Shown: positions 2,611 to 56,913 of the stretch, in pieces | Layout: every line of letters begins with the position of its first letter | How positions within the stretch are numbered: position 1 is the first letter of the stretch | The notes under the pieces: model-generated | Seen by the model: only the letters and a program-made list of their open reading frames with translations | Told to the model about the DNA's origin: nothing | Database searches by the model: none | Assembly: GCA_044229075.1 (NCBI GenBank) | Contig: JBGATS010000002.1 | Location: forward strand, 40,058-104,057 | Reading direction: 5' to 3' | From: Minisyncoccia bacterium | GTDB lineage: Bacteria; Patescibacteriota; Minisyncoccia; Phycocordibacterales; UBA1006 | DNA length: 64,000 nt | Program-made: the position numbers and the translations under genes

Positions 2611-2619
2611 AATTATGTT

Positions 2620-4405: not shown

Positions 4406-7400
4406 ATGAAACCCTACGATCACAAAAAAATTGAAAAGAAATGGCAGAAGACTTGGGTAGATACTAATGTGTATAAAACACTCTCTGCAAAACAGGCTCG
4501 TGCTAAAAAACTCAAACCATATTATGTACTGGATATGTTTCCGTATCCGTCTGGTGCAGGTTTACATGTTGGTCATCCACGCGGATATATTGCATCCGAT
4601 GTTTTTGCGCGCATGAAACGCATGAGCGGTTTTAACGTATTGCATCCAATGGGATTTGATAGTTTTGGGCTTCCTGCAGAACAATATGCAATCAAGACTG
4701 GAAAAAATCCTGGACCATTTACTAATGAACTAGTAAAACGATACAAGGAACAATTGTCGATCCTTGGCTTTTCATATGACTGGAATCGTCAGGTTGCAAC
4801 ACATGATCCAGAATATTATCGATGGACACAGTGGATTTTCTTACAGATTTATAACAGTTGGTATGATAAGGAAAAGCAAAAAGCTCGACCGATTACAGAT
4901 CTTGAAAAAGAATTTGCGAAAAATGGAAATGAAAAAGTGAACGCAGTTTGTGATCAGAATACTCCGACTTTTTCAAAAACAGATTGGAAGAACTTTTCAG
5001 ATTTGGAAAAGCAAAACATGTTAATGAAATACCGATTGGCGTACGAGGGATATGCCGAGGTCAATTGGTGTGCAGAAATGGGAACCGTGCTCGCCAATGA
5101 TGAGGTGATCGAGGTAGATGGCAAAATGGTTTCCGAGCGAGGTGAATTTCCCGTTGAGAAAAAATCAATGCGGCAGTGGTTTATGCGCATTACTGCATAC
5201 GCTGATCGGTTAATTGATGGACTCGACGAAATCGATTGGTCAAACAGTATCAAGGAAATTCAACGGAATTGGATTGGAAAAAGTGAGGGAAGTGAGATTG
5301 AGTTCGGAATTGTCTCAGATAAAAAGACTAGGATCTTCGGTGAAAAAATTACGGGTTCCATTGAAAGAAGTATTGTAAAAGTTATATTAAGAAACAAAGA
5401 CGGAAAAATTCTCGTTCTCGATTCAAAAGGTTTCGGATTAGATCTTCCTGGAGGTGCGATTGAAAGCAATGAATCATTAGAAAAAACAGCAGTTCGGGAA
5501 CTTCAAGAAGAAACGGAATATACAAATTTTAGATTTGTAAAAAACATGAGTTCTGACTTTATTAACTACTATCACCTCAATAGACAACAGTATTTTCACG
5601 GAAAAATTCATGTACTTTTATATGATTTAATTAACGATGAAAAATCTATAAAAAATGTTCAGTCAGGAGAAAATGAAACCAAAGATAAATGGATTAACCC
5701 ACAAGAGTTATATGATATTTTTCCAAAAGATTCAGCTTATAAAACTGCTTTAAAGAAATCAATTTTTGATTATATAAGTATACAGAAAAATCAAATAACA
5801 GTATTCACAACGCGTGCAGACACATTATTTGGTGTGACCTATGTTGTGTTGGCGCCAGAGCATGATTTGGTTCAGCAATTAAAATCACACATTACAAACT
5901 GGGATGAAGTTGAACAATATATCGCATCAGTAAAATCAAAATCAGATGAAGATCGCACTGCAGCAAAAGAAAAAACAGGAATACAATTAGAGGGAATTTT
6001 TGCAGTAAATCCAGTAAGCGATGAGCAAGTTCCAGTATGGATTGCGGATTATATATTAGCTGGATATGGAACAGGAGCAGTGATGGCAGTTCCTGCGCAT
6101 GATGAACGAGACTTTGAGTTTGCACAGAAATATGATCTACCGGTTAAGCATGTTGTTTCCCGTGTTCTTGATTATAAGGATCATAAAGAAGGTGTTCCAC
6201 ATTTAGTACGAAAAACAGTTGATCCTATTATTCGTGATAAGGAAGGGAATTTTTATTTAATACGTGAAAGTGAAGAAGATGTACACTTCGCAGGAGGTGG
6301 GGTTGAGGAAGGAGAAAGTGATATAGAAACTGCTCGGCGTGAAATAATTGAAGAAACAGGATTTACGGATTTTATTATCGGCAACCCAATTAATCTTTAT
6401 ATTTCTGCAACAGGTTATAGAGCAGCAAAAAATAGAAATCAGACTGGGTATGGAACTGCATATGAAGTTGTATTAAATAGTACTCAGCAGATTCCATCAG
6501 AAATTGATCAAGGAATCCATACGGTAGTAAAGGTTTCAAAGGATGATGTCTTAAAATCAATCACATGGGAGCATCATCGTTGGATTTTTGAAGCGTATTT
6601 AAACGGACCAAAAGCTTTTACAGACGAAGGTTTACTTATCGACTCTGGTCAGTTTAATAATATGAATTCTACTGAAGCTCGCAAAGCAATTACGGAATTT
6701 GTTGGTGGGAAATTGGTTACTAAATACAAAATGCGCGATGCAATCTTTGCACGACAGCGATATTGGGGTGAACCGATTCCGTTAATCCATGAAAAAGACG
6801 GGCTAATTGAAGCAATTCCAGAGAAGCAACTTCCACTAACTCTTCCACCTGTCAAAAGTTATGCACCAAGTGGAAATGGTGAAGGGCCGCTTGCGACTGT
6901 AAAATCATGGGTGACTGCAGGCTACGAAACCAACACCATGCCGGGCTGGGCTGGATCATCATGGTATTTCTTGCGCTATACGGACCCAACGAACAAGAAA
7001 AAATTTGCAGATGAATCAGAACTTGATTATTGGTTTGGGAAAAATGGTGGGGTGAATATGTATGTCGGTGGTGCAGAGCATGCAACAGGACACCTCCTCT
7101 ATTCTCGTTTTTGGCACAAGGTCTTGAAAGATTTGGGATATGTAAAAACAGAGGAACCGTTCCAGGCATTGCGTAATCAGGGTATGATTGGTGGTGCCGA
7201 TGGACGCAAAATGTCAAAACGGTGGGGAAATGTGATCAACCCAGATGATGTGGTGCGTGATATGGGTGCTGATACATTGCGTGTGTATGAATCATTCATG
7301 GGACCATTTGATGCCCACCTACCATGGAGTATTGATGGTATTGCAGGCGCGCGACGATTTATTGAACGTATTTGGCGATTCCAAACTAAAGTTTCAAATA

Positions 7401-7876
7401 CAGTAAAGACTACCGAACATCTTGAGAAAGTTCTCCATAAAACAATCAAAAAAGTGAGTGAAGATATTCAAAACTTTGCGTTCAATACAGCAGTATCGTC
7501 CATGATGATTTTTGCAAACGAACTTGAAAAAGCAGAATCAATCAATATTGCTGATTTTAAAAAATTCCTCCAAATTCTCGCTCCGTTTGCACCACATATT
7601 ACGGATGAATTATGGGCAAGTCTTGGTGAGAAAAAATCAATTCATAGTGCATCATGGCCAACATTTGATCCAAAAAAGGTAATCGATACTACCATCACTA
7701 TCGGAATTCAAATCAATGGAAAAGTGCGTGCCGAAATAGAAATTAATCGCGAAGAGTCATCAGAAAACATACAATCAATAGTTTTGGCAATGCCAGAAAT
7801 TATCAAATGGATTGATGGAAAAGAAATAAAGAAATTTATTTATGTTCCAGGAAGGGTGATTAATATTGTTGTATAG
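4406..7876 (+). CDS. leuS: Leucyl-tRNA synthetase carrying two inserted NUDIX hydrolase domains
   Basis: Class I motifs are present: PYPSGAGLHVGHPRGY (HIGH), KMSKRWGN (KMSKS), and the CP1 marker TVFTTRADTLFGVTYVVLAPEH. The ORF is 1156 aa against about 820-880 usual. Extra segments at aa ~301-463 and ~585-740 each contain a canonical NUDIX box: GGAIESNESLEKTAVRELQEETEY and GGGVEEGESDIETARREIIEETGF. Confidence 0.9.
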   Translation: MKPYDHKKIEKKWQKTWVDTNVYKTLSAKQARAKKLKPYYVLDMFPYPSGAGLHVGHPRGYIASDVFARMKRMSGFNVLHPMGFDSFGLPAEQYAIKTGKNPGPFTNELVKRYKEQLSILGFSYDWNRQVATHDPEYYRWTQWIFLQIYNSWYDKEKQKARPITDLEKEFAKNGNEKVNAVCDQNTPTFSKTDWKNFSDLEKQNMLMKYRLAYEGYAEVNWCAEMGTVLANDEVIEVDGKMVSERGEFPVEKKSMRQWFMRITAYADRLIDGLDEIDWSNSIKEIQRNWIGKSEGSEIEFGIVSDKKTRIFGEKITGSIERSIVKVILRNKDGKILVLDSKGFGLDLPGGAIESNESLEKTAVRELQEETEYTNFRFVKNMSSDFINYYHLNRQQYFHGKIHVLLYDLINDEKSIKNVQSGENETKDKWINPQELYDIFPKDSAYKTALKKSIFDYISIQKNQITVFTTRADTLFGVTYVVLAPEHDLVQQLKSHITNWDEVEQYIASVKSKSDEDRTAAKEKTGIQLEGIFAVNPVSDEQVPVWIADYILAGYGTGAVMAVPAHDERDFEFAQKYDLPVKHVVSRVLDYKDHKEGVPHLVRKTVDPIIRDKEGNFYLIRESEEDVHFAGGGVEEGESDIETARREIIEETGFTDFIIGNPINLYISATGYRAAKNRNQTGYGTAYEVVLNSTQQIPSEIDQGIHTVVKVSKDDVLKSITWEHHRWIFEAYLNGPKAFTDEGLLIDSGQFNNMNSTEARKAITEFVGGKLVTKYKMRDAIFARQRYWGEPIPLIHEKDGLIEAIPEKQLPLTLPPVKSYAPSGNGEGPLATVKSWVTAGYETNTMPGWAGSSWYFLRYTDPTNKKKFADESELDYWFGKNGGVNMYVGGAEHATGHLLYSRFWHKVLKDLGYVKTEEPFQALRNQGMIGGADGRKMSKRWGNVINPDDVVRDMGADTLRVYESFMGPFDAHLPWSIDGIAGARRFIERIWRFQTKVSNTVKTTEHLEKVLHKTIKKVSEDIQNFAFNTAVSSMMIFANELEKAESINIADFKKFLQILAPFAPHITDELWASLGEKKSIHSASWPTFDPKKVIDTTITIGIQINGKVRAEIEINREESSENIQSIVLAMPEIIKWIDGKEIKKFIYVPGRVINIVV

Positions 7877-16825: not shown

Positions 16826-17539
16826 TCATAGAGTACCTGCAAGAGCTTGTTCATTAAAATGCGCAAGTCTATGAATTCGTCCAAAGATAATTACTACAAT
16901 TAACCCAATAAACCATAATCCCGAAAGACTAATAATAATACTCCGTGTAGTATTAATCATAATAAAGTAATTGAAAATTGCATGGAGTCCAATAGCAAGT
17001 CCTAGTCCGAATACTGCATGCACCCATTTCATAAACGCGGTTTCATAATAAGCAATTCCCAACATAATACCTACAATAGCAACACAGATTGTATGAAGGA
17101 GTGTTGCACCAATAAATCGTAGATTACTGGCGAAGAGAAATGCACTGATTGGGCCTGTGGAAGGCTCAATGAGGTAGAGCGTATTTTCCAACCCCGAAAA
17201 ACCAAGTGCTAGGGTAATAAGATACAATGCATAATCTGTCGGTTTTGTAATACGATATACAGAGAAAGAAATGAGTGCGGTTACAATTACTTTGATAACT
17301 TCTTCAATGATTGCGAATGCTAATACGTACTCTTTTTGATCAAGATTTGTCAGGAGTATTACATGACTCAATGGGAAGACAAGGAACACACACACCATCC
17401 CCATGATATAGAGAAAAGATAAAAAACCCGTTTGTACAGGTTTTTTATCTTGTGAAAACCAGAACCATAACCACAAAAAAGTAGGAATAATTCCCCCAAC
17501 AATTGCCCATAATAACATTTCTGGTTTTATACCGGCCAT
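16826..17539 (-). CDS. PrsW-family intramembrane protease
   Basis: Polytopic protein with the PrsW signature motifs EEVIK (EExxK), FSGLENTLY, HTICVAIVG and HAIFNYF. Confidence 0.6.
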   Translation of the reverse strand: MAGIKPEMLLWAIVGGIIPTFLWLWFWFSQDKKPVQTGFLSFLYIMGMVCVFLVFPLSHVILLTNLDQKEYVLAFAIIEEVIKVIVTALISFSVYRITKPTDYALYLITLALGFSGLENTLYLIEPSTGPISAFLFASNLRFIGATLLHTICVAIVGIMLGIAYYETAFMKWVHAVFGLGLAIGLHAIFNYFIMINTTRSIIISLSGLWFIGLIVVIIFGRIHRLAHFNEQALAGTL

Positions 17540-20250
17540 GACTCTATTATAAGCAATTTTTGCGATTTTGTCTTGTCTTTTTCAGTATAGAGCATACTCC
17601 AAATTTCCTCGGTAATGAACGGCATAAACGGGTGGAGAACCTTGATCAAGGTGACCAAGTGTGTACGGAGCGTCCATTGTGCGCTGACTTTATTTCGATG
17701 CTCTGCAATTTTTACCTTTGATCGTTCTAGGATATTACTCGCAAATGTGTCCCAAAAATAATGATAGAGTTTTTCAGAAACCAGATAGAATTTATACTCT
17801 GACATTTCCTTGGTAATTTCAGTAATAAACGCATTCAATGCATCAATAGATTGCCTGTCTTCTGTATCATATTCAGGTTTCTGATCAAGATCTAAATCAT
17901 AAGTTTGTTCCATGACGAATCGTGTCGCGTTCCAGATCTTGTTTGCGAATTTTGAATAGGCTTTTATTTTCTCCTCGGTCATCGTGGTTGGCTGTCCTGG
18001 TCCGACGCCGACAATCATCGACATACGCAGTGCGTCTGCGCCGTGTTTTGCAATCGTTTCGAGCGGATCAATAGCAGTCGCAGGGTTTGATTTGCTCATT
18101 TTCTTTCCATTTTTATCCAACACCATTCCGTGCAAATAAACAGTTTTAAAGGGTACCTCGTCGAGTAAATATCGCGACATCAAGATCATACGTGCAACCC
18201 AAAAGAATATAATATCGTTTCCTGTTTCCAGTACTGATGTTGGGTGATAGGTTTTTAAATCTGATGTATGTTCAGGCCAACCAAGCGTTGAAAATGTCCA
18301 TAGTCCTGATGAAAACCATGTGTCGAGCGTGTCAGAATCTTGAGAAAGATTTTCACCTTTGGGATTTATAAAAATAGGGAATTCAGTAATACTTGCATTA
18401 TCTACACGCCATTTTTTTCGGAATGCAACAAGATCATATTCTTCTTCAAGAACGGCTTTCATTACTGCAGAAAATGTAGCATGTCCCACAATTAAGATGT
18501 CACCATTACTTGCGTCATTATGGATAATTTCCCAAGCACGCTTTGCACGAGCGATCAGTTCATCCTGGGTTTCACCAGTTTTATCATTGAAAGCTGCCAT
18601 CAGTATAGGAATTTTTCTACTAGGAGTACCTTCAACACTTCCGCCATTGATTTCACGAAACTCAGGAGAAGTTTCAATATCAAGTCCCAACGTATCAGCA
18701 ATTATTTTTGCAGTATCATGAGCGCGCGAAAGGTCTGAAGAGAATATTTTAGTAATATTTTTATCTTTCAATAATTTAGCTGTAGTTTTCGCTTGCTCAC
18801 GACCTTTGTCGGTAAGTGGTGTATCATTTTGACCAGCATATATATGCGCAGCATTTGCTTCTGATTCGCCATGGCGGACTAAAATAATGTTTCGCTTTTT
18901 TTGCAAATGGATATTATTATTTTTGTCATACCAAACAGGAATCCGATGTCCGTACCAAATTTGTCGGGAAATACACCAATCGCGTAGGTTTTCGATCCAA
19001 TGAAAATAAACCTTTTCAAATTGTGCTGGCATTATTTTAATATCACCATTACGCACTGTTTCGATCATGAGTTCTTTCAATGATTTATTATTGCGTGCAG
19101 GAATTTTCTTGTTCACATCAACGAACCACTGCAATTTTGGTAATGGTTCAATAATTCCTTTTGACCGTTCTGCGATAGAGACATTTTGTTTTACCGTTTC
19201 TTCTTTCTCGAGTAATCCTTCAGTTCTCAAGTATTCAATAACTACTTCACGCGCCTCGGTTGTTTTCTTGCCTAATATAGTTTCGTCACCAACCGTCATT
19301 TTTGCAAATTCGTTGATTACAGGTTTTACCTCGAGTCCGTGACGCTGTGCAATATCCCAGTCGATTTGACTGTGTGCAGGTGTCACACCCAGGGCGCCTG
19401 TTCCAAATTCTGGTTCGACAGATTCATCAGTAATAATTTTGATTGAAAGTGGAACACCACAAAAAACACCTTCGTATGTTTTTCCTACGAATTCTTTATA
19501 ACGTGCATCATTAGGATGAACCGCTACGGCAACATCACCAACCTTTGTCTCGGGTCGGGTAGTAGAAATGGCAACAGGGAAGTCTTTCCAATATTTGAAG
19601 GTATATAATAGTGCATCGCGTTCCTCGTGATCAATTTCATCATCTGAAATAACCGTCTGACCTTTTGGATCCCAGTTTACAATTTTATATCCACGATAAA
19701 TCAATCCGTCATCATACATTTGTTTGAACGCGGTGTTTACGGCAACCGATCTTTTTCCATCCAATGTAAATGCTTCACGTGACCAATCAACAGATGCGCC
19801 CATTTTGCGTACTTGGCTCACAATGGTGTCATGGGAATTTTGTGCGAATTCGTTTACTCGTTTCAAAAATTCCTCGCGGCCGAGATCTTGTTTACGGATT
19901 TTTTCTTTTTCAAGATTTTTTTCTACAATGGTTTGGGTGGCAATGGCTGCATGATCGGTTCCTGGGAGCCAGAGCGTTTTTTTGCCTTGCATACGTGCAA
20001 ATCGTGTCATGATATCCTGGATCACCAACATGAACGCATGTCCGGTATGTAATGTTCCGGTTACATTGGGTGGTGGTAGTACTATCGAAAATGGCTCTGC
20101 GCTTACATCAGTAACTCCTTTTTCAATACAAATATCTGGATTAAAAAATCCAGATTCTTCCCAAGTTTTGTAGATAGATTCTTCAACTTCAGAGGCATTA
20201 TACGGTTTTAATAATTTTTCAGGAACATTTGCCTTGTTTTCAAAAGTCAT
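17527..20250 (-). CDS. valS: Valyl-tRNA synthetase carrying an inserted histidine-phosphatase (PGAM-like) domain
   Basis: PPPNVTGTLHTGHAF (HIGH), KMSKSNPATAIDP (KMSKS), CISRQIWYGHRIPVWY and TLDTWFSSGLWTFSTLGWPE are present. Between the last two motifs, about 190 extra aa contain ILVRHGESEAN...GQNDTPLTDKGREQA...IFSSDLSRAHDTA...ILIVGHATF. These are the RHG catalytic motif plus the second conserved His of the histidine phosphatase superfamily. Confidence 0.9.
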   Translation of the reverse strand: MTFENKANVPEKLLKPYNASEVEESIYKTWEESGFFNPDICIEKGVTDVSAEPFSIVLPPPNVTGTLHTGHAFMLVIQDIMTRFARMQGKKTLWLPGTDHAAIATQTIVEKNLEKEKIRKQDLGREEFLKRVNEFAQNSHDTIVSQVRKMGASVDWSREAFTLDGKRSVAVNTAFKQMYDDGLIYRGYKIVNWDPKGQTVISDDEIDHEERDALLYTFKYWKDFPVAISTTRPETKVGDVAVAVHPNDARYKEFVGKTYEGVFCGVPLSIKIITDESVEPEFGTGALGVTPAHSQIDWDIAQRHGLEVKPVINEFAKMTVGDETILGKKTTEAREVVIEYLRTEGLLEKEETVKQNVSIAERSKGIIEPLPKLQWFVDVNKKIPARNNKSLKELMIETVRNGDIKIMPAQFEKVYFHWIENLRDWCISRQIWYGHRIPVWYDKNNNIHLQKKRNIILVRHGESEANAAHIYAGQNDTPLTDKGREQAKTTAKLLKDKNITKIFSSDLSRAHDTAKIIADTLGLDIETSPEFREINGGSVEGTPSRKIPILMAAFNDKTGETQDELIARAKRAWEIIHNDASNGDILIVGHATFSAVMKAVLEEEYDLVAFRKKWRVDNASITEFPIFINPKGENLSQDSDTLDTWFSSGLWTFSTLGWPEHTSDLKTYHPTSVLETGNDIIFFWVARMILMSRYLLDEVPFKTVYLHGMVLDKNGKKMSKSNPATAIDPLETIAKHGADALRMSMIVGVGPGQPTTMTEEKIKAYSKFANKIWNATRFVMEQTYDLDLDQKPEYDTEDRQSIDALNAFITEITKEMSEYKFYLVSEKLYHYFWDTFASNILERSKVKIAEHRNKVSAQWTLRTHLVTLIKVLHPFMPFITEEIWSMLYTEKDKTKSQKLLIIESWPV

Positions 20251-22037: not shown

Positions 22038-23237
22038 ATGGAACAGAAAAAACTAAAAAACATTCGGATAGCCATTATTGGACCATCTGGAGCAGGAAAG
22101 ACAACACTAATTGATTTACTTTTTATTGTCTTTAGAAATATGCATTTTGCAATTTCTGATACAACAAAAACATTACCAATTGGGCATGTGAATGGACAGG
22201 AATATAATTATATTTCTACTGAAAAGTTTTCTGAAAAGAGAAAAGATAATCTCTATGCAGAATATAATGACCAATTTAATGATTGGTATGGTACACCACT
22301 ATCAGAAACTGATATTACAGATCATTCTGTAATATTTAATGTTGATGTTGATGGTGCAAGAAATTTGAAAAAAATATTTCCAGATTTGGTAACAATTTTT
22401 ATTAAACCACCTAGTGTACAGGAATTAGAGCGACGACTACTTGTCCGTGCTCGTGAAACCGAAGAAAAAATTAAATTACGCATTAGACGTTATCGGTATG
22501 AAAAGAAATTTATACCATTTTTTGACTACTGTTTAACAAATAATGATTTAGATGGATGTTTTGCAAAACTTGCAGCAATTATTTTCAAAGAACAAGGTGG
22601 AATTATTACGGCAATTGATGGTACTGCTGCTAGTGGTAAGGGTACTATAGCAAAGGAGCTTGCTAAAATATTTGATGCTTATCACTTGGATTCTGGTTTG
22701 ATTTATCGCAGTATTACCTACGCAATGATTAACGAGGGAATCACTCATGATGATGAAAATCTTGGACAATATTTATCAAGATTTTTAGAAACCTTTTCAG
22801 GTGTTGAAGATGAAAAATTACTACGCACTGAGGAAATTAGTGTGAAGGTTGCTAATTTTAGCGGCTTGAAAGAAGTTCGTAGGATCGCTTTTCAACTTCA
22901 AATGAAAATGGCATATCATTTTGGGCATTGTCATATTATTGCGGAAGGTCGCGATATGACAACATTTGTATTTAGCGAAGCTCAATACAAATTCTTTGTG
23001 GATTGTCCGTTGGATATTCGTGCAGAACGACGATCAAAACAGTTTAGGTACTTAAAAAATTCTGCAGATTATTGGAATATTTATAATGCACTAGAATGTC
23101 GTGATAGAGCTGACAGAGAACGAAAACTTCATCCTTTGAAGTTTTGCCCATGGCTAGGTGTTAAGAAAATCAATAACATTAAACTTCTTGAAAAAACAAT
23201 TGAAAAAACTATCTCTTTTTACAAAGAAGCCGCTTGA
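22038..23237 (+). CDS. gmk/cmk: Bifunctional guanylate kinase / cytidylate kinase fusion
   Basis: N-terminal half: IIGPSGAGKTTL...ISDTTK...NGQEYNYISTEKF...WYGT...FIKPPSVQELERRL is Gmk-like. C-terminal half: ITAIDGTAASGKGTIAKELAKIFDAYHLDSGLIYR...AEGRDMTTFVF...DIRAERRSKQ is Cmk-like. Confidence 0.8.
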   Translation: MEQKKLKNIRIAIIGPSGAGKTTLIDLLFIVFRNMHFAISDTTKTLPIGHVNGQEYNYISTEKFSEKRKDNLYAEYNDQFNDWYGTPLSETDITDHSVIFNVDVDGARNLKKIFPDLVTIFIKPPSVQELERRLLVRARETEEKIKLRIRRYRYEKKFIPFFDYCLTNNDLDGCFAKLAAIIFKEQGGIITAIDGTAASGKGTIAKELAKIFDAYHLDSGLIYRSITYAMINEGITHDDENLGQYLSRFLETFSGVEDEKLLRTEEISVKVANFSGLKEVRRIAFQLQMKMAYHFGHCHIIAEGRDMTTFVFSEAQYKFFVDCPLDIRAERRSKQFRYLKNSADYWNIYNALECRDRADRERKLHPLKFCPWLGVKKINNIKLLEKTIEKTISFYKEAA

Positions 23238-25334: not shown

Positions 25335-25406
25335 GGCCCTATCGTCTATCGGTTAGGACAGCAGGTTTTCATTCTGCAAAGCGGGGTTCGACTCCCCGTA
25401 GGGTCA
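25335..25406 (+). tRNA. tRNA-Glu (anticodon TTC); integration target of the downstream island
   Basis: Acceptor GGCCCTA/TAGGGTC, Glu-type D-arm TC-GTCTATCGGTTAGGAC, anticodon stem GCAGG/TCTGC with loop TTTTCAT, T-arm CGGGG-TTCGACT-CCCCG. Confidence 0.8.
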
Positions 25407-25460
25407 CAATAGAGAGAGCTAGTTCGAGCGCTCGAGAAGGGTCGAAACTAGCAAACAAAA

Positions 25461-25485
25461 GCAAGTCAGAAATGACTTGCTTTTG
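25461..25485 (+). terminator. Terminator downstream of tRNA-Glu
   Basis: gcaagtca-gaaa-tgacttgc followed by TTTT. Confidence 0.75.
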
Positions 25486-25517
25486 TTGTACTAAACTACA
25501 ACGATTTGTGATACAAT
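25485..25517 (+). promoter_or_regulatory. Candidate C-box-like palindrome (GTTGTA-N6-TACAAC) plus extended -10 (TGTGATACAAT) upstream of the controller gene
   Basis: Inverted repeat gttgta ctaaac tacaac at 25485-25502 sits at the -35 position relative to TGnTACAAT at 25508-25517. ATG at 25524. Confidence 0.4.
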
Positions 25518-25523
25518 ATTTTT

Positions 25524-25730
25524 ATGAAAGATGATGCTAAGAAATTGGGAGAAAATCTCAAAATGATCAGAACAAAGAAGGATATTACACAAACACAACT
25601 TGCGGATATCCTTGGAGTCGACAAGTCTTTTGTGAGTAATATTGAGAACGGAAAAACCAACCCTACTCTTTCAACTATTACTAATCTAGCTCAAGCGTTG
25701 AATGTGTCGACTAATGAATTATTAAAATAA
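25524..25730 (+). CDS. XRE-family HTH regulator, probable R-M controller (C) protein
   Basis: 68 aa with the Cro/C1-type HTH LKMIRTKKDITQTQLADILGVDKSFVSNIENGKTNP...LAQALNVSTNELL. It lies directly upstream of the restriction and methyltransferase genes. Confidence 0.65.
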   Translation: MKDDAKKLGENLKMIRTKKDITQTQLADILGVDKSFVSNIENGKTNPTLSTITNLAQALNVSTNELLK

Positions 25731-25734
25731 ATTT

Positions 25735-26715
25735 ATGGCAAGTACAAATTCTAAACAAATGACAACAGGAAAATCTTTTGAGTATGCTCTATTGATTTCC
25801 TTTGAAGAAAAATTGAAAGATAAAACAAATCTTGAGGTCGTAAAAAACTCTGCTTTTGATGTTGCAAAAAGTTGTTTTGATAGTGTTTCTAATCTTGAAA
25901 GAAGTGAGTATCTTCTGTCTGCAAGTTTTGCGGTTAACTTTTTAATGGATATAGAGCCAAGACTTTCAAATGATATTGGAAAAGACGATATTCTTCAACT
26001 TGAAATTTTATCAGATAACCATGGTAAAGCTGGTGATGTTCGTGATGTGCTTGCTATCAGATTACTTCAAAAATGGGAAATTGGTGTTTCTGCAAAGAAT
26101 AATCATATGGCAGTAAAACATTCTCGACTATCGTCGAGTATTGATTTTGGTGACAAGTGGTTAGGGTCCAAAGCTTCTAGTGAGTATTTTAATGAAATAA
26201 CTCCGATATTCTCTAGTCTTGAACAAATAAGAAAAGAAAGTGGAGCAAAAAAGAAGTGGAGTGAATTGGGTGATTATCACTCTACAATTTATGTTCCTAT
26301 TCTTAAAGCTTTTATAAAAGAACTAAAAAATCTGTACAAAAAAGATCCTGCAAGGGTTGCATCTAATCTGGTTGCTTACCTGGTTGGAAAAAAGGATTTT
26401 TATAAAGTAATCAAAGGGAAAAATTCTGTTGAAATTCATGCGTATAATTTAAACGGAACTTTAAATCTCCCATTTAAGGATGTTCAGCCTAAGTATAAAA
26501 CCCCAAAGGTCCCACTTCCTACTGAAATAGTTGATATAGATTTCAAGAATGGTAGTGACACAACAGCTATCGTAACAATGAATAATGATTGGACTTTGTC
26601 ATTCCGAATTCACAATGCAAGTTCAAGAGTTGAATCTTCTTTAAAGTTCGATATCAATCTTTTAAAATCACCAAATAAATTATTTAAAAACACGTTAACG
26701 ATAAGTAAAGATTAA
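25735..26715 (+). CDS. Putative type II restriction endonuclease of the C-R-M module
   Basis: 326-aa ORF between the C protein and the C5-methyltransferase, with 4-nt gaps. It has a possible PD-(D/E)xK-like segment GDVRDV...WEIGVSAK. The call rests mainly on position. Confidence 0.45.
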   Translation: MASTNSKQMTTGKSFEYALLISFEEKLKDKTNLEVVKNSAFDVAKSCFDSVSNLERSEYLLSASFAVNFLMDIEPRLSNDIGKDDILQLEILSDNHGKAGDVRDVLAIRLLQKWEIGVSAKNNHMAVKHSRLSSSIDFGDKWLGSKASSEYFNEITPIFSSLEQIRKESGAKKKWSELGDYHSTIYVPILKAFIKELKNLYKKDPARVASNLVAYLVGKKDFYKVIKGKNSVEIHAYNLNGTLNLPFKDVQPKYKTPKVPLPTEIVDIDFKNGSDTTAIVTMNNDWTLSFRIHNASSRVESSLKFDINLLKSPNKLFKNTLTISKD

Positions 26716-26719
26716 AATT

Positions 26720-27697
26720 ATGAAATTAGCTTCATTATTCACAGGTGCAGGAGGACTTGATTTAGGCTTTGAAAAAGCTGGTTTTCATGTTGTTTGGGCA
26801 AATGAGTATGATTCAACAATTTGGGATACATTTGAATATAACTTTCCAAAAACAAAACTCGACCGTCGTAGTATTGTAGATGTATCCCACTCAGATATTC
26901 CTAAAGTTGATGGAATTATCGGAGGTCCACCATGTCAGAGCTGGAGTGAGGCTGGGGCTGGTCGTGGAATAAACGATAAACGAGGTCAGTTATTTTTTGA
27001 TTATGTTCGATTACTAAAAGAAAGACAACCAAAGTTTTTCCTAGCTGAGAACGTTGCTGGAATTCTTCATCCGAAACATGCAGAGGCTTTTAATAATATT
27101 ATTAAATCATTTGAAGATGCTGGCTATGTAATATCCTGGAAATTATTAAACGCAAATGATTATGACGTTCCTGAGGACAGACTTCGTGTAATTATAGTTG
27201 GTTATCATAAAAAACTTAAAAAGAAATTTGAATTTCCTGAACCGCAAAAGTATAAACCCGTTCTTAAGGATGCAATTTTTGATTTACGATTAGCTAAACC
27301 TGCAAAAGATAAAAACAAAACAAATGGAGATGCCCTAAAAATACCAAACCATGAGTACATGATTGGTGGGTTTTCTACTATGTATATGTCACGAAATCGC
27401 GTTAGATCTTGGGATGAACCATCTTTTACTATCCAAGCTGGTGGTCGTCATGCACCACTACATCCACAAGCCCCAAAAATGAAATTCATATCTCAAAATG
27501 AAAGAGTTTTTGTTCCTGGTAAAGAAGATTTATATCGCCGTTTATCGGTACGAGAATGTGCAAGAATACAAACATTTCCCGATGATTTTATTTTTAAATA
27601 TCGTGATGTAGCTGATGGATATAAAATGATAGGTAATGCTGTACCAGTTAATTTTGCATACCATATAGCTAAGAAAATAATGAAAGATTTAAAATAA
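26720..27697 (+). CDS. DNA (cytosine-5)-methyltransferase, M.HaeIII-like
   Basis: Motif I LFTGAGGLDLGF, motif IV GGPPCQSWS, motif VI FLAENV and motif X IGNAVPVNFA are present. Long stretches (KNKTNG...NHEY.IG.FST..MSRNRVR.W.EP.FT.QA.GR...LHPQAP...YRRL.VRECAR.Q.FPDDFIF.Y...DGYKMIGNAVPVN) match my recollection of M.HaeIII (GGCC). Confidence 0.85.
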   Translation: MKLASLFTGAGGLDLGFEKAGFHVVWANEYDSTIWDTFEYNFPKTKLDRRSIVDVSHSDIPKVDGIIGGPPCQSWSEAGAGRGINDKRGQLFFDYVRLLKERQPKFFLAENVAGILHPKHAEAFNNIIKSFEDAGYVISWKLLNANDYDVPEDRLRVIIVGYHKKLKKKFEFPEPQKYKPVLKDAIFDLRLAKPAKDKNKTNGDALKIPNHEYMIGGFSTMYMSRNRVRSWDEPSFTIQAGGRHAPLHPQAPKMKFISQNERVFVPGKEDLYRRLSVRECARIQTFPDDFIFKYRDVADGYKMIGNAVPVNFAYHIAKKIMKDLK

Positions 27698-27708
27698 AGA
27701 ATAAAGAG

Positions 27709-28974
27709 CTAAATTTTAATTATTTTGTTTTTCAAAATCAACTCACTACTGATACATTCCAAGATAGATCTTTGTTCTAGCGGAGATCCTTCTTTTAGTA
27801 CAAATTTTGTATAATCCCTGAGATCAATTGGTTCTATTTTTTCTGTCTTTTTCTTACCCAAGAACATTGCTTGTAGTTTCTTGAACTTCTGTATCTCAAC
27901 ATCAAGTTTTGCTGTCAACTTAACCTTATTGATATTTAAGGTATCAACCATATCGAGTAGTGACTCAATTAGTTCAGTCTCGTTCAATGCAGGGTTCTTA
28001 CAATTCCGATCTTTGGCTTTTGTACATCGGTAATATACATGTCGATTTACTCCACCATTCAGTAGCTTCTTGAATTTTTCATCGGCAGTAATACCTGATC
28101 CACACACTCCACATTTCATAATTCTCGTAAAGGCAAATTCCTTGCCTTGTGATTTTATAGTCTGCGATTTGATAGAATTTCGTGTCTCATCAAATAATTC
28201 CTTGGAGATGATCGGCTTATGTTTTCCCTCATACCAGATACCAGCACCTTGAGGAAACTCAAAGCGACCATAATAGAAAGTATTATTTATAATTTTGAAC
28301 ACATTTCCTAGACTTAAGTGAAAACCTCTGTGAGTTTTGAAATTGAGATCATATCGTAACCATGCGTGTACTTTTGATACACTCCATTTTTCGTAGCTGA
28401 TCTTCTCAAATATCTGGCGTATGGTATCGGCTCGTTCTGGATCTATTTCCACCTCACACTTGGCTAATCGTTGGTTAGGCTTTCTATATCCTGTTGGTGG
28501 TTGTACTGGCCATAGACCCATTTCGCATCTCGCCCTCATTCCACGCTTTACATTGATACTTTTATTATCATTTTCTAGTTTTGCTTGAGAACACAGAATC
28601 ATCAACAAGAACTTATCACTTGGAGAATTCGTAAATGTCTGACCAAATGTTTTGATCTGAATTAGTTTTTTCTGATCCATTCTATCTACGAGTTTTCCAA
28701 GATCTCCTGCATTACGAGAAAGTCTATCGGGTGCCCATGTGATTATTCCGTTGAATATATCAGTATCGATATCTTTTACGATTTCCTCAAATACTGGTCT
28801 TTGTCCTGACTCTTTTGCACTATGTGATTCCTTCCGAATCTCAACTATGGTGAGATTTTCACGTTCTGCAATCTGTCTCATTTCCTTGATCTGAGAATCA
28901 ATAGAAAGAGCTTGTTTTTCTTCAGCTTCTGTTGATTTACGAGCATATAAGCAATATTTTAATGGTGCTTCCAT
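27709..28974 (-). CDS. Large serine recombinase (resolvase/invertase N-domain plus recombinase domain plus Zn-ribbon)
   Basis: N-terminus YARKSTEAEEKQALSIDSQIKEMRQIAERENL...WAPDRLSRNAGDLGKLVD holds the catalytic Ser region. A recombinase domain and a C-terminal CGVCGS...YYRCTK...C zinc ribbon follow. Confidence 0.85.
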   Translation of the reverse strand: MEAPLKYCLYARKSTEAEEKQALSIDSQIKEMRQIAERENLTIVEIRKESHSAKESGQRPVFEEIVKDIDTDIFNGIITWAPDRLSRNAGDLGKLVDRMDQKKLIQIKTFGQTFTNSPSDKFLLMILCSQAKLENDNKSINVKRGMRARCEMGLWPVQPPTGYRKPNQRLAKCEVEIDPERADTIRQIFEKISYEKWSVSKVHAWLRYDLNFKTHRGFHLSLGNVFKIINNTFYYGRFEFPQGAGIWYEGKHKPIISKELFDETRNSIKSQTIKSQGKEFAFTRIMKCGVCGSGITADEKFKKLLNGGVNRHVYYRCTKAKDRNCKNPALNETELIESLLDMVDTLNINKVKLTAKLDVEIQKFKKLQAMFLGKKKTEKIEPIDLRDYTKFVLKEGSPLEQRSILECISSELILKNKIIKI

Positions 28975-33420: not shown

Positions 33421-33615
33421 CCTAACCCCTTTGGTTTTCCAAAGGATATGGTTGCAAAACTCGCTACAAGATAAAAACCCCATCATCAGGGGCTATTACT
33501 TGTAGCGAGTCGTATCGGGAAACTGGTACGGGTAACTTCGGTTACCGATGCCTTGGTGGTGGGATTTTTGTTTACCACCAAAATATTATTAACCATAAAA
33601 ACTCGCTACAAAAAT
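33421..33615 (+). other. Highly structured non-coding region (possible cis-regulatory RNA) upstream of the gene at 33616
   Basis: Direct repeat AAAACTCGCTACAA at 33456 and 33597. The inverted copy CTTGTAGCGAG at 33499 can pair with either. Hairpins ggtaac-ttcg-gttacc and ttggtggtggg...ccaccaa lie between. This gives alternative-pairing geometry. Confidence 0.4.
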
Positions 33616-34128
33616 ATGGAAACAAAAACTCTTTCCCAAAAAGGAATGGGTTGGGCTAAAAAACATCCAATCCTTTCCGTCATTGGGGTCATTTTTATAA
33701 TAGGACTTATCGGCAGTATTGTTGATCCTTCTGAAAAGAAACCAGATGAGCCTAAATTACAAGAACAAGTTCAGCAGGTTGTGTTTGATGTTCCTTCGCT
33801 TATTGGGAAAAACATAGATGAAATTGAATTTATCTACGGCAAGGAAGAATCACAGGAACCGAATGAGTATCAAATTAATACCGTTACTGAATGGAGTAAG
33901 GAATTCAAAAGGGATGAATTTATTCTTCTTGTAACATATGACTACAAAACAAGAGTTGTTAAAGATTTCTTTGTTTCTGCAACTGACGAAATTTATGAGA
34001 GTAGAGATAAGGATCGAATGATGAGTATTACAAATACTAATAAATATGATTCAAAATATTCAGTATCATTTGTAAAAGCAATGACTGACTCAACTCGATT
34101 CACTGGAATACAGATTTCGCCAAAATAA
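33616..34128 (+). CDS. Membrane-anchored hypothetical protein
   Basis: METKTLSQKGMGWAKKHPILSVIGVIFIIGLIGSIV (TM) is followed by an approx. 130-aa soluble domain. The ORF-track start at 33553 overlaps the structured region, and the ATG at 33616 is preferred. Confidence 0.4.
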   Translation: METKTLSQKGMGWAKKHPILSVIGVIFIIGLIGSIVDPSEKKPDEPKLQEQVQQVVFDVPSLIGKNIDEIEFIYGKEESQEPNEYQINTVTEWSKEFKRDEFILLVTYDYKTRVVKDFFVSATDEIYESRDKDRMMSITNTNKYDSKYSVSFVKAMTDSTRFTGIQISPK

Positions 34129-54324: not shown

Positions 54325-55653
54325 TTATTTTGAGAGCCTTTGATCAATTCGATTAATGTCTCGTGGGAATAATGTCGCTTCCTTTACGTTTTCAACACCT
54401 AGAAATTTTTGAGTCAATCGCTCTAGACCCATTCCAATTCCACCATGTGGCGGAATACCATACTTAAATGCCATCAAATAGAATTCAAATTTTTCAGGAT
54501 CAAGTCCTTTGCTTTTCATTTTCTCGATCAACATTTCATAGTCATGAACACGCTGACTTCCAGAAATGATTTCAACACCTCGAAACAATAGATCGAAACT
54601 TTTTGTCATACCTGGATCAGCAGGGTCTTCCATGGTGTAAAATGGTCGCTTTGAAACCGGATAATGTGTTACGAACACGAAATCACTTCCAAGATTTTTT
54701 GCTGCGTATTCACACAGCCACCGTTCATCTTCTGGTTCTAGATCTGGCTCGGTGGTAATATCTTTTCCAGTTTCTTTTTTGATTAACTCTTGTGCTTCTC
54801 GTAATTTCATCACTGGGAATGATTCAGGTGCCATAGGTAATCCCATTTCAAAAAATGAAAGCTCCTTTTGTGCTTTTTCTCCTACAGATTTAACAATATG
54901 TCGAAGTGTCGCCGAGATCATATTCATGATGTCAGTATGATCAGTAATGAACCCCATTTCGACATCGAGCATGGTCATTTCATTCAGGTGACGACTTGTT
55001 GCATGTTTTTCAGCACGGAATTGAGGACCTGTTGTATACACTCGCTCAAACACGCCTACCATCATTTGTTTATACAACTGAGGACTTGTTGAAAGATATG
55101 CTGGCTGGTTGTACAGATATTCAAGCTTGAATACTCCTGCACCACCTTCCGCATCGCTACCCGTGATTCGTGGTGCTTGGAATTCAATAAAGTTTTGTGA
55201 GTCTAAATATTCACGAAATGCAGTTAAAATAATTTGCTGAGTTTTGAAAATCCCTTTTTCTCGTTCACGACGAAGCGTAAGTGGTCGGAAGTCGAGCAAT
55301 GTATCAAGATTTAATTCAGCATCGCTTGAAAACGGAAGTTCATTTGCAGTACTAATAATTTCGAGCCTTAAAATTTCAAGTTCAATATCACCATTCTGTT
55401 TGTCAGCTTGGCGATTACGTTCTGGTCGCTCATTTACTTTTCCTGTTACCGATACAACGTATTCAGTTTTAATTTCTTTTGCAATATCGATCGCAGCACT
55501 TCCAGGTAGTACCACACCCTGTACATATCCTGTACGATCACGAAAGTCGAAGAAAACCATTTTCCCCTGATCACGACGAACAGATACCCACCCTTGAATC
55601 ATTGCCTCGCTTCCCTTGTGATTTGATAAATCACCAATTAAAATTCTTTGCAT
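54325..55653 (-). CDS. aspS: Aspartyl-tRNA synthetase (class IIb, archaeal/non-discriminating-like)
   Basis: Class II motifs FRAEKHATSRHLNEMTMLDVEMGF, GGIGMGLERL and a terminal FPRDINRIDQRL. The N-domain begins MQRILIGDL...MIQGWVSVRRDQGKMVFFDFRDRTG. A TATAAT lies 7 nt upstream of this ATG, so the longer ORF-track start at 55764 is unlikely. Confidence 0.8.
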   Translation of the reverse strand: MQRILIGDLSNHKGSEAMIQGWVSVRRDQGKMVFFDFRDRTGYVQGVVLPGSAAIDIAKEIKTEYVVSVTGKVNERPERNRQADKQNGDIELEILRLEIISTANELPFSSDAELNLDTLLDFRPLTLRREREKGIFKTQQIILTAFREYLDSQNFIEFQAPRITGSDAEGGAGVFKLEYLYNQPAYLSTSPQLYKQMMVGVFERVYTTGPQFRAEKHATSRHLNEMTMLDVEMGFITDHTDIMNMISATLRHIVKSVGEKAQKELSFFEMGLPMAPESFPVMKLREAQELIKKETGKDITTEPDLEPEDERWLCEYAAKNLGSDFVFVTHYPVSKRPFYTMEDPADPGMTKSFDLLFRGVEIISGSQRVHDYEMLIEKMKSKGLDPEKFEFYLMAFKYGIPPHGGIGMGLERLTQKFLGVENVKEATLFPRDINRIDQRLSK

Positions 55654-55792
55654 AAAAATTATATCCAGATTGGTTTTTATAAGTGAAATACTACACTGTT
55701 TTCGTATTTGAGTATGAGCTCGATTTGTTGTTCTATGAAAGAAATAGTCACGCAGAATAGACAATAGTATGTATGGAACACTTATTCAAAAT

Positions 55793-55975
55793 AAAAACCC
55801 CTCTGAACTTATGTATAATTATGAGCCGACGCTCGTAATGACTGATAAATTCAGAGGGGCGGAGAGTTTCCGCGGTGCCACCCTCAATTATACTCTTTTC
55901 TGAAATATAGGACTATTTCAAGCCTCCTCGCCAGGTGTCAGTTGGGTCACCGGAACAGGAATACTATAGCAATAT
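55793..55975 (-). promoter_or_regulatory. T-box riboswitch leader (promoter TGCTATAGT, short Stem I, T-box sequence, terminator) upstream of aspS
   Basis: Minus-strand RNA reads ...CCGGUGACCCAACUGACACCUGG (Stem I). Then ...AAUUGAGGGUGGCACCGCGG (T-box consensus AAUUAGGGUGGNACCGCG). Then AAACUCUCCGCCCCUCUGAA...UUCAGAGGGG-UUUUUAU (terminator). The UGGC bulge fits a G73 discriminator. Confidence 0.7.
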
Positions 55976-56145
55976 TTTGGTGGTTGTGGTACTTGACAAA
56001 TACTATTAAATATGCTAACATTGTACGTAGATGATAAAAATCATCATTGTTCTTTACAAAGTCTTTCATAATGAATTGTTTGGTGAATTAAGTAATTTTT
56101 CTTTATTACTAAAAATTATTTAATTCACCAAATCATTTTTATAGT

Positions 56146-56913
56146 ATGAAAACATTTTTTTTATTTTTAGGACAAAGTTCTGTTAGCATTTTTGACGGTG
56201 TAAAAACCAAGAGAGGACATAAAGGAAATTATGTCCAACTGGCAGAAATTCCAGGCGTTCCAGCAGAAAAATTTCAAATGAGGCTGGATTTTAAAAATCC
56301 GGCAATCCTGGATAATAAAGGGGTTATAAAAGAACTCTTTATTAAAATCTATGGAGCTCAACGATTTCGTGATGCTGGGTTTGTTAGTGCGTGTGCACCA
56401 ACAAAAAAAACGAGTGCGATTATGATTTTCACCAGCAAACATTGGCCAGAGCTGGGTTTGGAGATTATGGAGGGTAAACCAAACGGTGAGTTTCCTGGTG
56501 TTCAAATTATGAACGAGGGCGACACACTACGTTTTACCCACGCAAATGTTGGTTATCAATTAACCAACAGTGGTGGCGAGCCCTGGTTGACCAAGGTACT
56601 AAAACCAAAAATGGTACCTACTACTGTAAAGCAGTCAAAAACTGCTACGCCAGTAGAGGTGGTGGACAACCGGAAAAAAATTACCGAACAACCAAAAGTT
56701 GTTGGTAAAATACCAGTTGAAAAAATTGAGCAAAAAAATTCTCAGATCAAAAAATTTGAGAAAAAATATGCCCAAAAACCACCAACAGCGGGTAATAGTA
56801 ACAACAAGGAAGTTATGAAGAAAAAAATTTCTCATAACAAACCGACAACCTTTAAAGCTTTTAGTGGCTTAAAGGAATTACTTGCTGATACTGGTGTCAC
56901 AACAACCAGCTAA
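56146..56913 (+). CDS. Hypothetical protein with Lys-rich C-terminal tail
   Basis: 255-aa ORF with no recognisable motifs, followed by a strong terminator. Confidence 0.4.
   Translation: MKTFFLFLGQSSVSIFDGVKTKRGHKGNYVQLAEIPGVPAEKFQMRLDFKNPAILDNKGVIKELFIKIYGAQRFRDAGFVSACAPTKKTSAIMIFTSKHWPELGLEIMEGKPNGEFPGVQIMNEGDTLRFTHANVGYQLTNSGGEPWLTKVLKPKMVPTTVKQSKTATPVEVVDNRKKITEQPKVVGKIPVEKIEQKNSQIKKFEKKYAQKPPTAGNSNNKEVMKKKISHNKPTTFKAFSGLKELLADTGVTTTS

Follow-up and report, generated by a model that had tools for sequence, protein, structure and literature searches.

How would a bacterium of the candidate phyla radiation (CPR) adjust the synthesis of its aspartyl-tRNA synthetase (AspRS) to the charging of tRNA, and how small an RNA leader could do so? 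These questions are raised by the aspS gene in a 64,000-nt stretch of DNA from a Minisyncoccia bacterium (assembly GCA_044229075.1, contig JBGATS010000002.1, positions 40,058 to 104,057; we will refer to this whole stretch as the window). A first-pass annotation, which was made from the sequence alone, described the region upstream of aspS as a T-box riboswitch with a reduced Stem I and a specifier that might be read as either Asp or Asn. We observed the fold of Stem I, the alternative between antiterminator and terminator, a conserved register for the codon GAC, and the association of this leader with aspS. From the sequences of the leader and its relatives, we conclude that it is a real T-box and that its architecture is a new and strongly reduced variant that is conserved and covarying; its function we infer. 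It is likely to be a transcription-attenuation T-box that would monitor the charging of tRNA-Asp(GUC) and set the level of read-through into aspS. We found no description of T-boxes in CPR, Patescibacteria, Parcubacteria, or Saccharibacteria in the open-access literature.

Relatives of the aspS leader

We compared the leader with two sets of relatives (individual loci are cited by number, such as L008). The genome set comprises the 80 loci in GTDB genomes that are closest by AspRS homology alone (the leader sequence was not used), and nearly all of these are labelled as Paceibacterota, Parcubacteria-group, or 'Saccharibacteria' metagenome-assembled genomes. A T-box core lies within a few hundred bases 5' of aspS in 12 of these 80 loci (L002-L005, L008, L011, L016, L018, L020, L024, L025, and L027). 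L027 is from Kaiserbacteria, and its Stem I could not be resolved by eye.

The metagenome set was collected with the pattern TGACA-N4-7-GAG-N25-55-GGGTGGCACCGCG, which matched at least 120 loci. Among the matches listed, 69 of 120 have the architecture described below, with a kink-turn (K-turn) and a short hairpin, and an AspRS gene lies downstream of 57 of these 69 leaders; for 11 of the other 12, the available downstream sequence is 210 nt or shorter. These genes encode three forms of AspRS: archaeal-type enzymes (25 loci), bacterial-type enzymes of 465-475 amino acids without the GAD insertion (11 loci), and ordinary bacterial enzymes of 590 amino acids (21 loci, most of which seem to come from a small number of related metagenome samples).

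A T-box switch upstream of aspS

Every sequence element that the first-pass annotation listed is present on the minus strand (coordinates are in Table 1). The T-box itself matches the conserved sequence AGGGUGGNACCGCG, as quoted in PMC11297988, at 14 of 14 positions (55884-55871), and GGUGGNACC occurs only once in the 64-kb window, in this T-box. Upstream is an extended -10 element, from which transcription would start at about 55956-55958, one to three bases 5' of Stem I. The promoter is shared with relatives: TGnTAnnnT lies 6-8 nt 5' of the first stem of the K-turn in L008, L166, L094, and L153, and a TANNNT hexamer ends 3-11 nt upstream in 37/64 metagenome relatives (among the matches listed).

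Downstream of the T-box, the 5' arm of the intrinsic terminator includes the 3' strand of helix A1 of the antiterminator. The two structures share 55859-55854 and therefore exclude each other, which makes the switch possible. The leader as a whole is more stable than shuffled sequences (z = -2.7), and the terminator of the window is also found in L008 and L166. A1 and A2 show 96-97% pairing in 23 relatives, and their outer pairs have changed in a compensatory manner. The complete T-box core and the mutually exclusive antiterminator and terminator support the proposal of a T-box leader that acts on aspS by transcription attenuation.

The 7-nt bulge of the antiterminator begins with UGGC, which is predicted to pair with the 3'-GCCA of a tRNA with the discriminator base G73. 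The first-pass annotation had made the same prediction, and the sequence supports it. Bacterial tRNA-Asp has G73. The only tRNA-Asn in an ARAGORN scan of 200 loci and the window, which is in L137, has G73 as well.

A different read-out may be used by another group of relatives (L083, L084, L096, L099, L119, L128, L199, and similar loci), in which compact Asp T-boxes lie 5' of ordinary 590-aa bacterial-type aspS genes. In this group there is no obvious terminator with a U-tract 3' of the antiterminator. What follows is a hairpin, GGGUGCC...GGUGCCC, whose sequence could pair with the GGCACC of the T-box; between this hairpin and the AUG is a stretch rich in A that includes GGGAC. The read-out may be translational or sequestering.

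Stem I is a K-turn with a short hairpin

Stem I was proposed to be drastically reduced, and indeed it is just 32 nt long. The leaders share a common plan. On the 5' side, a canonical stem (C-stem) of 3-4 bp is followed by a 3-nt bulge, GA, one base, a helix of 3-4 bp, and a loop of the form Y-U-G-A-C-A-(M); on the 3' side are the returning strand of the helix, one base, GA, and the returning strand of the C-stem. This is the K-turn (GA-motif) layout found in T-box Stem I and in the Rfam consensus gaUGA...GAG, but here the specifier loop directly closes the helix above the K-turn.

We aligned Stem I from 74 distinct relatives in a fixed register of 32 columns, padded with N. (A MAFFT alignment of the Stem I segments misaligned the AAC-containing leaders L003 and L005 and was replaced by this one.) In the fixed-register alignment, pairing holds in 86.5% of the cells, double-sided changes number 154 compared to 52 in shuffles, and the covariation is 0.705, compared to 0.261 in shuffles (0/500 reach the observed value) and at most 0.155 in slid controls. 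Because a sequence could enter the alignment only with a paired inner helix and both GA dinucleotides, selection accounts in part for these features. No such demand was made of the C-stem, and yet its pairs 2-4 show 86-100% pairing, in C-G, U-A, A-U, and G-C variants. The two GA dinucleotides are present in 74/74 sequences (in part because of the filter) and also in the window and in the 10 leaders from the AspRS-recruited genomes that were parsed (L003 and L005 included), where the parse itself needed them. The -1b.-1n pair is C-G in 65 sequences and U.G in 9; the bulge has 3 nt, and its position L3 is U in most sequences. By these sequence features, the element is a K-turn, with the C-stem, the 3-nt bulge, the tandem sheared G.A/A.G pairs, and the non-canonical stem (NC-stem) all in place.

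The particular pairing that had been proposed for Stem I, CCGGUG/CACCUGG with the loop ACCCAACUGA, did not hold up: across the 74 relatives its covariation is 0.086, compared to 0.082 in shuffles. It is the minimum-energy fold of the window sequence alone and appears to be a coincidence of the bulge sequence of this lineage. We also dropped the idea that loops of 7 nt go with the loss of Stem II and loops of 6 nt with its presence, as many metagenome leaders that lack Stem II have 6-nt loops.

The specifier is GAC

The specifier loop has an anticodon-loop-like layout, Y-U-NNN-A-M. A YUGACA loop, with GAC and the following purine at a fixed distance from the K-turn, is found in the window and in L004, L008, L011, L016, L018, L020, L024, and L025, which were recruited via AspRS homology alone; L017 carries this loop too. 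In this conserved register, where GAC + A is fixed, the suggested ambiguity between Asp and Asn is gone. GAC is an unambiguous specifier, and by its sequence the leader is predicted to sense tRNA-Asp.

Two relatives have a different codon in the same place. The AspRS proteins of L003 and L005 are 75-76% identical to that of the window, and their loop is ACAACA, with AAC + A exactly in the register of GAC. Their sister leader L002 has the loop ACGACA, with GAC in the same register and an extra hairpin inserted in the loop. (In L002, L003, and L005, the bulge is UGGU, not UGGC.) This comparison implies that a single G/A change switches orthologous aspS leaders between Asp and Asn. Thus, the Asn-sensing T-box on aspS that the first-pass annotation had envisaged is realised in L003 and L005 and not in the window, whose specifier is GAC. 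Switching of the specifier on orthologous aspS genes bears on the regulation of indirect Asn-tRNA synthesis.

Three modules are missing from the leader

In the window, Stem I ends in the specifier loop, and the distal platform of Stem I (the AG bulge and the distal loop) is absent. A Stem II that bears an S-turn-like motif (GGAAGAA ... AGUAGAACC) and is followed by a hairpin occurs in L008, L011, L016, L002, L003, L005, and L017; the S-turn of Stem II and the IIA/B pseudoknot are missing from the window and from L004, L018, L020, L024, L025, and L166. Where the window has a linker hairpin, L008 has Stem II with the S-turn-like motif (GGAAGAA...AAGUAGAACC) and L166 has nothing. The linker hairpin (55920-55901) is probably a remnant of Stem II or a replacement for it.

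The window keeps the RAG motif, as GAG, and the AA purines (the RAG motif and its role are described in PMC11297988). The linker hairpin lies 5' of the RAG motif, and as only UAU separates GAG from AA, the canonical position of Stem III has no hairpin. This layout without Stem III, AWGAG-NNN(N)-AAA..AGGG, is shared by the window, L008, L166, L094, L142, L153, L159, the L093 group, and others, while relatives with Stem III read GAG-hairpin-NAAGUAGGG.

Measured from the K-turn to the end of A1, the sensor of the window is 103 nt long, and those of L094, L142, L159, and L166 are 84-86 nt long. The promoter, the K-turn, the specifier loop, the RAG motif, the T-box, and the terminator are all retained in the compact relatives, whose sensor measures 84-105 nt. 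In L166, the T-box, the terminator, and the spacer that follows are about 81% identical to those of the window. The conservation of the compact layout argues for selection on a function that we deduce from sequence.

These leaders might be two-point mini T-boxes, in which the tRNA would be recognised only via an anticodon-loop-like kissing loop on the K-turn and the NCCA-pairing bulge, and which would be widespread upstream of the three forms of aspS in CPR and other uncultured bacteria. We consider the chances of this to be about even. If functional, a two-point mini T-box would contradict the idea that a T-box with a truncated Stem I needs Stem II and that none can do without Stem III, and it would be the smallest natural scaffold for studies of how T-boxes recognise tRNA. 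A conserved, covarying family that lacks all three modules would mark the minimum for tRNA sensing, and biophysical and engineering work would gain a very small construct from it. Such a family would further reveal control in response to amino acids in the reduced genomes of CPR bacteria, for which almost no regulation has been described.

Covariance models

The first-pass annotation had held that the T-box would be refuted if no covariance model matched the leader or if the antiterminator pairing could not form. The outcome is mixed: the pairing can form (-11.1 kcal/mol), and the Rfam model of the T-box (RF00230) does not match the window's leader at its gathering score. In a permissive local scan, the leader scored 30.9 bits (E = 4.2e-5), compared to the gathering score of 93, and only its 3' half aligned well. 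This sub-threshold alignment puts Stem I at 56072-56142, in an AT-rich hairpin that is located 5' of the conserved promoter and has no equivalent in L008 or L166, so we rejected this placement. Ten relatives that we scanned with RF00230 (L002-L005, L008, L011, L016, L018, L020, and L024) all stayed below the threshold too: five scored 32-55 bits, and those that lack Stem II were unmatched.

We built another covariance model, R1, from 23 compact relatives, leaving out the window, L008, and L166. R1 matches the window at 55955-55853 over the full length of the model (54.4 bits, E of about 8e-12) and treats the extra linker hairpin as an insertion. The alignment of the 23 seed sequences supports all four helices, with a covariation of 0.444, compared to 0.186 in shuffles (0/500). 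Since the compact leaders score well below the Rfam threshold, genome annotations miss such leaders.

The aspS gene and its proximal promoter-like site

The aspS product has a class II core and scores above the cutoffs of two NCBIfam models for aspartate--tRNA(Asn) ligase (500 bits for NF003483, cutoff 353; 387.5 bits for TIGR00458, cutoff 368.4). A look-up found no record elsewhere of the exact protein. Downstream of aspS are scpA, scpB, and cell-wall genes, and upstream are an orphan divergent open reading frame (ORF) and an ABC transporter. Neither asnS nor gatCAB is within the 64-kb window, and no gatCAB adjoins aspS.

Residues 3-95 of this AspRS, which form the anticodon-binding domain, are 96% identical to those of L166, and identity then falls to about 28%; the catalytic core of the L166 enzyme is of the bacterial type and lacks the GAD domain. 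Conversely, residues 117-442 are 98% identical to the archaeal-type enzyme of L008, with only 86% identity at the N-terminus. By sequence comparison, the aspS of the window is a mosaic with a breakpoint near codons 95-116, and the T-box leader travels with the N-terminal domain. This matters for the proposal that the enzyme is non-discriminating. Discrimination between tRNA-Asp and tRNA-Asn lies largely in the anticodon-binding domain, so non-discriminating status cannot be inferred from the C-terminus. The scores as an aspartate--tRNA(Asn) ligase are consistent with the proposal, but the argument that was made from the C-terminus is weak, as the N-terminal domain matches an enzyme with a bacterial-type core.

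Between the terminator and the start codon is a conserved spacer element of about 115 nt, which nhmmer matched only in the window, L008 (2580-2706), and L166. The spacer forms a long hairpin with compensatory changes in L008 and L166 (-39 and -27 kcal/mol), whereas the hairpin is degraded in the window (-15 kcal/mol), which keeps a frame of 34 codons (..FCVTISFIEQQIELILKYEN..). The element may be an RNA hairpin or a small ORF.

Just before the ATG is a promoter-like sequence, TTCACT-18-TATAAT, which might provide a leaderless start that is independent of the T-box. However, a -10-like site before a gene is typical of this genome and is not special to aspS. TATAAT-like hexamers are about 5-fold enriched in the 0-12 nt 5' of the window's start codons (23 observed, about 4.7 expected), and a Shine-Dalgarno-like motif precedes just 1 of 40 genes in the window. 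This suggests that leaderless initiation, or initiation that does not depend on a Shine-Dalgarno sequence, is pervasive. (Start codons that illustrate the trend are at 2620, 8030, 12193, 16805, 17539, 37278, 38382, 54286, and 55653.) In L011, L016, L018, L020, L024, and L025, the ATG lies about 20-35 nt past the terminator. This leaves no room for a second promoter, which implies that read-through transcripts are the translated mRNA in these six relatives and can be translated without a Shine-Dalgarno sequence.

L017 has its Asp (GAC) T-box 2 kb 5' of aspS, at 847-1050; this leader includes a K-turn, Stem II, and a terminator. Between it and aspS are a gene for a signal-peptide protein of 237 aa and an ORF of 296 aa. 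This arrangement suggests an extended operon under T-box control.

Proposed mechanism and alternatives

We propose that transcription starts a few bases past the extended -10 element and that the first 32 nt fold, as the covariation indicates, into the K-turn, the helix of 3-4 bp, and the loop CUGACAC, which would present GAC + A much as an anticodon loop does. As in other T-boxes, the anticodon GUC of tRNA-Asp would pair with GAC, and the 3'-GCCA of an uncharged tRNA would pair with the UGGC of the 7-nt bulge, with help from the purines of the RAG motif. Docking of the tRNA would stabilise the antiterminator, which is weak (-11 kcal/mol), relative to the terminator (-31 kcal/mol), and polymerase would read on into aspS, 134 nt downstream. 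Charged tRNA would be unable to dock, and the terminator would form. More speculatively, the loop Y-U-GAC-A-M could mimic an anticodon loop, with a U33-like base and a purine-37-like base, so that the loop-loop complex is pre-organised; the two G-C pairs of that complex might then make the Stem II clamp dispensable.

Several points weigh against this proposal. With the elbow-binding distal part of Stem I, the S-turn of Stem II, the pseudoknot, and Stem III all absent from the leader, the tRNA would be held only at its anticodon and its acceptor end, and a leader without all three modules could bind tRNA too weakly. RF00230 remains below its threshold in both the window and the relatives. The basal pair of A2 is G-C, not the usual G.U (the motif is CGC rather than CGU in 51/55 relatives), and the G.U pair has been described as the main steric sensor of the aminoacyl group (PMC7583486). 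ARAGORN found no tRNA-Asp gene in the window or in the 200 loci; G73 is the discriminator expected of bacterial tRNA-Asp in general. In the metagenome set, the invariance of GAC is imposed by the TGACA in the search pattern. Finally, the promoter-like site right before the ATG could bypass the riboswitch.

Alternatively, the leader could be a decaying relic, which lost the ability to bind tRNA after the loss of Stem II and whose terminator now insulates aspS, with expression from the TATAAT box. Published mutational work found that Stem II and Stem III are necessary in other T-boxes (PMC7583486). The middle of the window's leader resembles a degraded Stem II when compared to L008, and the spacer is degraded relative to L008 and L166; a promoter-like site that scores 10/12 ends 4 nt before the ATG. 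But the T-box core, the bulge, A1 and A2, the K-turn, the specifier loop, and the RAG motif are all intact, and many divergent sequences share the layout without Stem II and Stem III and show compensatory changes, a pattern to which decay would not give rise. Also, -10-like hexamers near start codons are generic in this genome. We regard a relic as unlikely. Another explanation is that the conserved YTGACA is a -35 hexamer that acts at the level of DNA and that the complementarity of its flanks is incidental. In the promoter scan, CTGACA-18-(TG)AAATAGT does score 9/12, and several relatives have an exact TTGACA; yet in L166, L153, and L097, there is no conserved -10 element 17-19 nt downstream, and the conserved -10 element sits upstream instead. 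Furthermore, the covariation of the two flanking helices and the invariance of the two GA dinucleotides imply a constraint on the RNA, so we give this explanation almost no credence.

The other alternatives accept a working T-box and differ in which tRNA it would sense. If the leader sensed tRNA-Asn via an AAC in the loop, it would couple a non-discriminating AspRS to the supply of Asn-tRNA. AAC is indeed present at 55943-55941, the UGGC bulge suits the G73 of both tRNA-Asp and tRNA-Asn, the enzyme scores as an aspartate--tRNA(Asn) ligase, and AAC occupies the specifier register of L003 and L005 on orthologous aspS genes. There is also a precedent in the T-box with an Asn specifier on the AspRS-GatCAB operon of Clostridium acetobutylicum (Saad 2012, as summarised in PMC4206432). 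However, the AAC of the window consists of helix positions 3-4 and loop position 1, and these bases vary among the relatives (GGC, AGC, GAC, AAC, or AGU). The base after it is U instead of the conserved purine, and it is GAC + A that holds the exact place of AAC + A in L003 and L005, which makes the sensing of tRNA-Asn by this leader very improbable. Could the leader accept both tRNAs, like the two-codon NT-box of C. acetobutylicum (Saad 2013, as summarised in PMC4206432)? Its helix is closed by a weak A.C pair, and opening of this pair would give a 9-nt loop, ACUGACACC, with AAC-adjacent and GAC triplets. But AAC is not kept in the closest relatives (L166 has CCGA-CUGACAC and L008 has CCGG-CUGACA), and nothing else in the leader hints at a second specifier. 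A two-codon T-box seems extremely improbable here, and we favor the sensing of tRNA-Asp via GAC.

Table 1. Features of the aspS leader, the aspS gene, and specifier variants in relatives
Feature	Position	Strand	Details
Extended -10 element	55963..55971	-	TGCTATAGT; from sequence
Ultrashort Stem I	55924..55955	-	32 nt; UUCC-GGU-GA-C-CCA(A)-CUGACAC-(C)UGG-C-GA-GGAG
Stem I, C-stem	55955-52 / 55927-24	-	UUCC / GGAG, then 3-nt bulge GGU
Stem I, tandem G.A	55948-47, 55929-28	-	GA, GA; 3b.3n pair is C.C
Stem I, upper helix	55945-42 / 55934-31	-	CCA(A) / (C)UGG; terminal loop CUGACAC, 55941-35
Specifier	55937..55939	-	GAC (Asp codon); U55940 before, conserved purine A55936 after
Linker hairpin	55901..55920	-	UGAAAUA-GUCCUA-UAUUUCA; folding prediction; lineage-specific
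RAG purine motif	55893..55895	-	GAG; then only UAU, then AA before helix A1
T-box stretch	55889-55870	-	AAUUGAGGGUGGCACCGCGG; holds the full 14-nt consensus AGGGUGGCACCGCG
T-box sequence	55871..55884	-	AGGGUGGCACCGCG; 14/14 to consensus
7-nt bulge	55880-55874	-	UGGCACC, with UGGC at 55880-55877; from sequence
Antiterminator	55854..55885	-	A1 GAGGG/CCCUC; bulge UGGCACC; A2 GCGG/CCGC; loop AAACUCU; -11.1 kcal/mol
Intrinsic terminator	55788..55859	-	62-nt hairpin 55859-55798 (15-bp outer stem and inner stem-loop; arms CCCCUCUGAA... / ...UUCAGAGGGG); -31.1 kcal/mol; U-tract UUUUUAUUUU, 55797-55788
Conserved spacer element	55671..55787	-	About 115 nt, between terminator and aspS ATG; nhmmer
Promoter-like site	55658..55687	-	TTCACT-18-TATAAT; ends 4 nt before aspS ATG; consensus scan, 10/12
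aspS	54325..55653	-	442 aa; archaeal-type catalytic core and N-terminal OB-fold anticodon-binding domain; Pfam tRNA-synt_2, tRNA_anti-codon
Asn leaders on orthologous aspS	L003 ~1382-1409; L005 ~2528-2555		AAC
Asp leader on orthologous aspS	L002 ~2606-2663		GAC

Other features of the window

Between the ABC transporter and the T-box is a block with no counterpart in L008 or L166, which looks like an insertion. It consists of an inverted repeat of about 24 bp, AT-rich and nearly perfect (56072-56135), just 5' of the orphan 255-aa ORF (56146-56913, + strand), which has no Pfam match. It is this repeat that the RF00230 alignment took for Stem I. Elsewhere in the window, two class I aminoacyl-tRNA synthetases (4406-7876, + strand, and 17527-20250, - strand) have foreign domains inserted in the catalytic domain: the leucyl-tRNA synthetase contains a NUDIX domain (amino acids 323-441), and the Ile/Val-type enzyme contains a histidine-phosphatase domain (amino acids 455-624). 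Neither of these two genes is preceded by a T-box.

A LOOT RNA (RF03000; 33419-33546, + strand, 88.3 bits) lies directly 5' of an ORF without a Pfam match (33553-34128). The region at 25335-28974 looks like an integrated mobile island, with a HaeIII-type restriction enzyme, a C5 cytosine methylase, and a large serine recombinase directly beside a tRNA-Glu. At 22038-23237 (+ strand), guanylate kinase and cytidylate kinase domains are fused in one ORF.

Comparison with known T-boxes

T-boxes serve as the model of an RNA that senses a tRNA's identity as well as its charging. Structural studies attribute essential roles to the elbow platform of Stem I, or to Stem II and IIA/B where that platform is lacking, and to Stem III as part of the discriminator. 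The canonical T-box of Firmicutes, as modelled by RF00230 (which includes Asp-specific aspS leaders), shares much with the leader of the window: the 14-mer, the 7-nt bulge, the switch between antiterminator and terminator, the K-turn (NNU-GA ... GA), a specifier that is followed by a purine, and an aminoacyl-tRNA synthetase as the target. In contrast, the specifier of the window is in a terminal loop and not in an internal loop with an S-turn; the AG bulge and distal loop, Stem II and IIA/B, and Stem III are missing; and the basal pair of A2 is G-C and not G.U.

The Asn T-box and the two-codon NT-box of C. acetobutylicum, as far as PMC4206432 relates them (Saad 2012, 2013), resemble our leader in that a T-box controls an AspRS of the non-discriminating type, and the AAC specifier recurs in L003 and L005 on orthologous aspS genes. 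Those T-boxes are canonical and full-length; the window's leader has GAC as the specifier, and its aspS has no adjoining gatCAB.

The closest likeness in Stem I is to the class II T-boxes of actinobacterial ileS genes, for which structures are available from Mycobacterium tuberculosis and Nocardia farcinica. They too have a K-turn with a short hairpin, a specifier in the terminal loop that is followed by a purine, and no distal platform to bind the elbow, and the codon is at about nucleotides 16-19 of the RNA in both (C18/A19 in N. farcinica and columns 17-20 of our alignment). Their S-turn-like Stem II is also found in our relatives L008, L011, L016, L002, L003, L005, and L017. In the actinobacterial T-boxes, the short Stem I is compensated by Stem II and IIA/B (PMC11297988), and they need the S-turn in Stem II, the IIA/B pseudoknot, and also Stem III, none of which is present in the leader of the window. 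They also respond to Ile by sequestration of the Shine-Dalgarno sequence, whereas the leader of the window has an intrinsic terminator, an Asp codon, and a CPR host. Indeed, with a strong terminator and U-tract and with no Shine-Dalgarno sequence before aspS, translational control of that kind is not what we see. The class II model in TBDB was built from Actinobacteria only.

The glyQS T-boxes resemble our leader in another way, as they have no Stem II or IIA/B and are read out by transcription termination. Glycine T-boxes can omit Stem II, probably because the GGC/GCC pairing is strong, and they keep a long Stem I (PMC7583486). Here the corresponding pairing is GAC/GUC, and a G/C-rich codon-anticodon pairing is a possible reason why Stem II is dispensable in both. 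In contrast to the leader of the window, glyQS leaders retain Stem III, and the distal loops of their long Stem I make stacking contacts with the elbow of the tRNA. Thus, the compact CPR leaders combine the ultrashort Stem I of the actinobacterial T-boxes with a glyQS-like state that lacks Stem II, and they lack Stem III as well.

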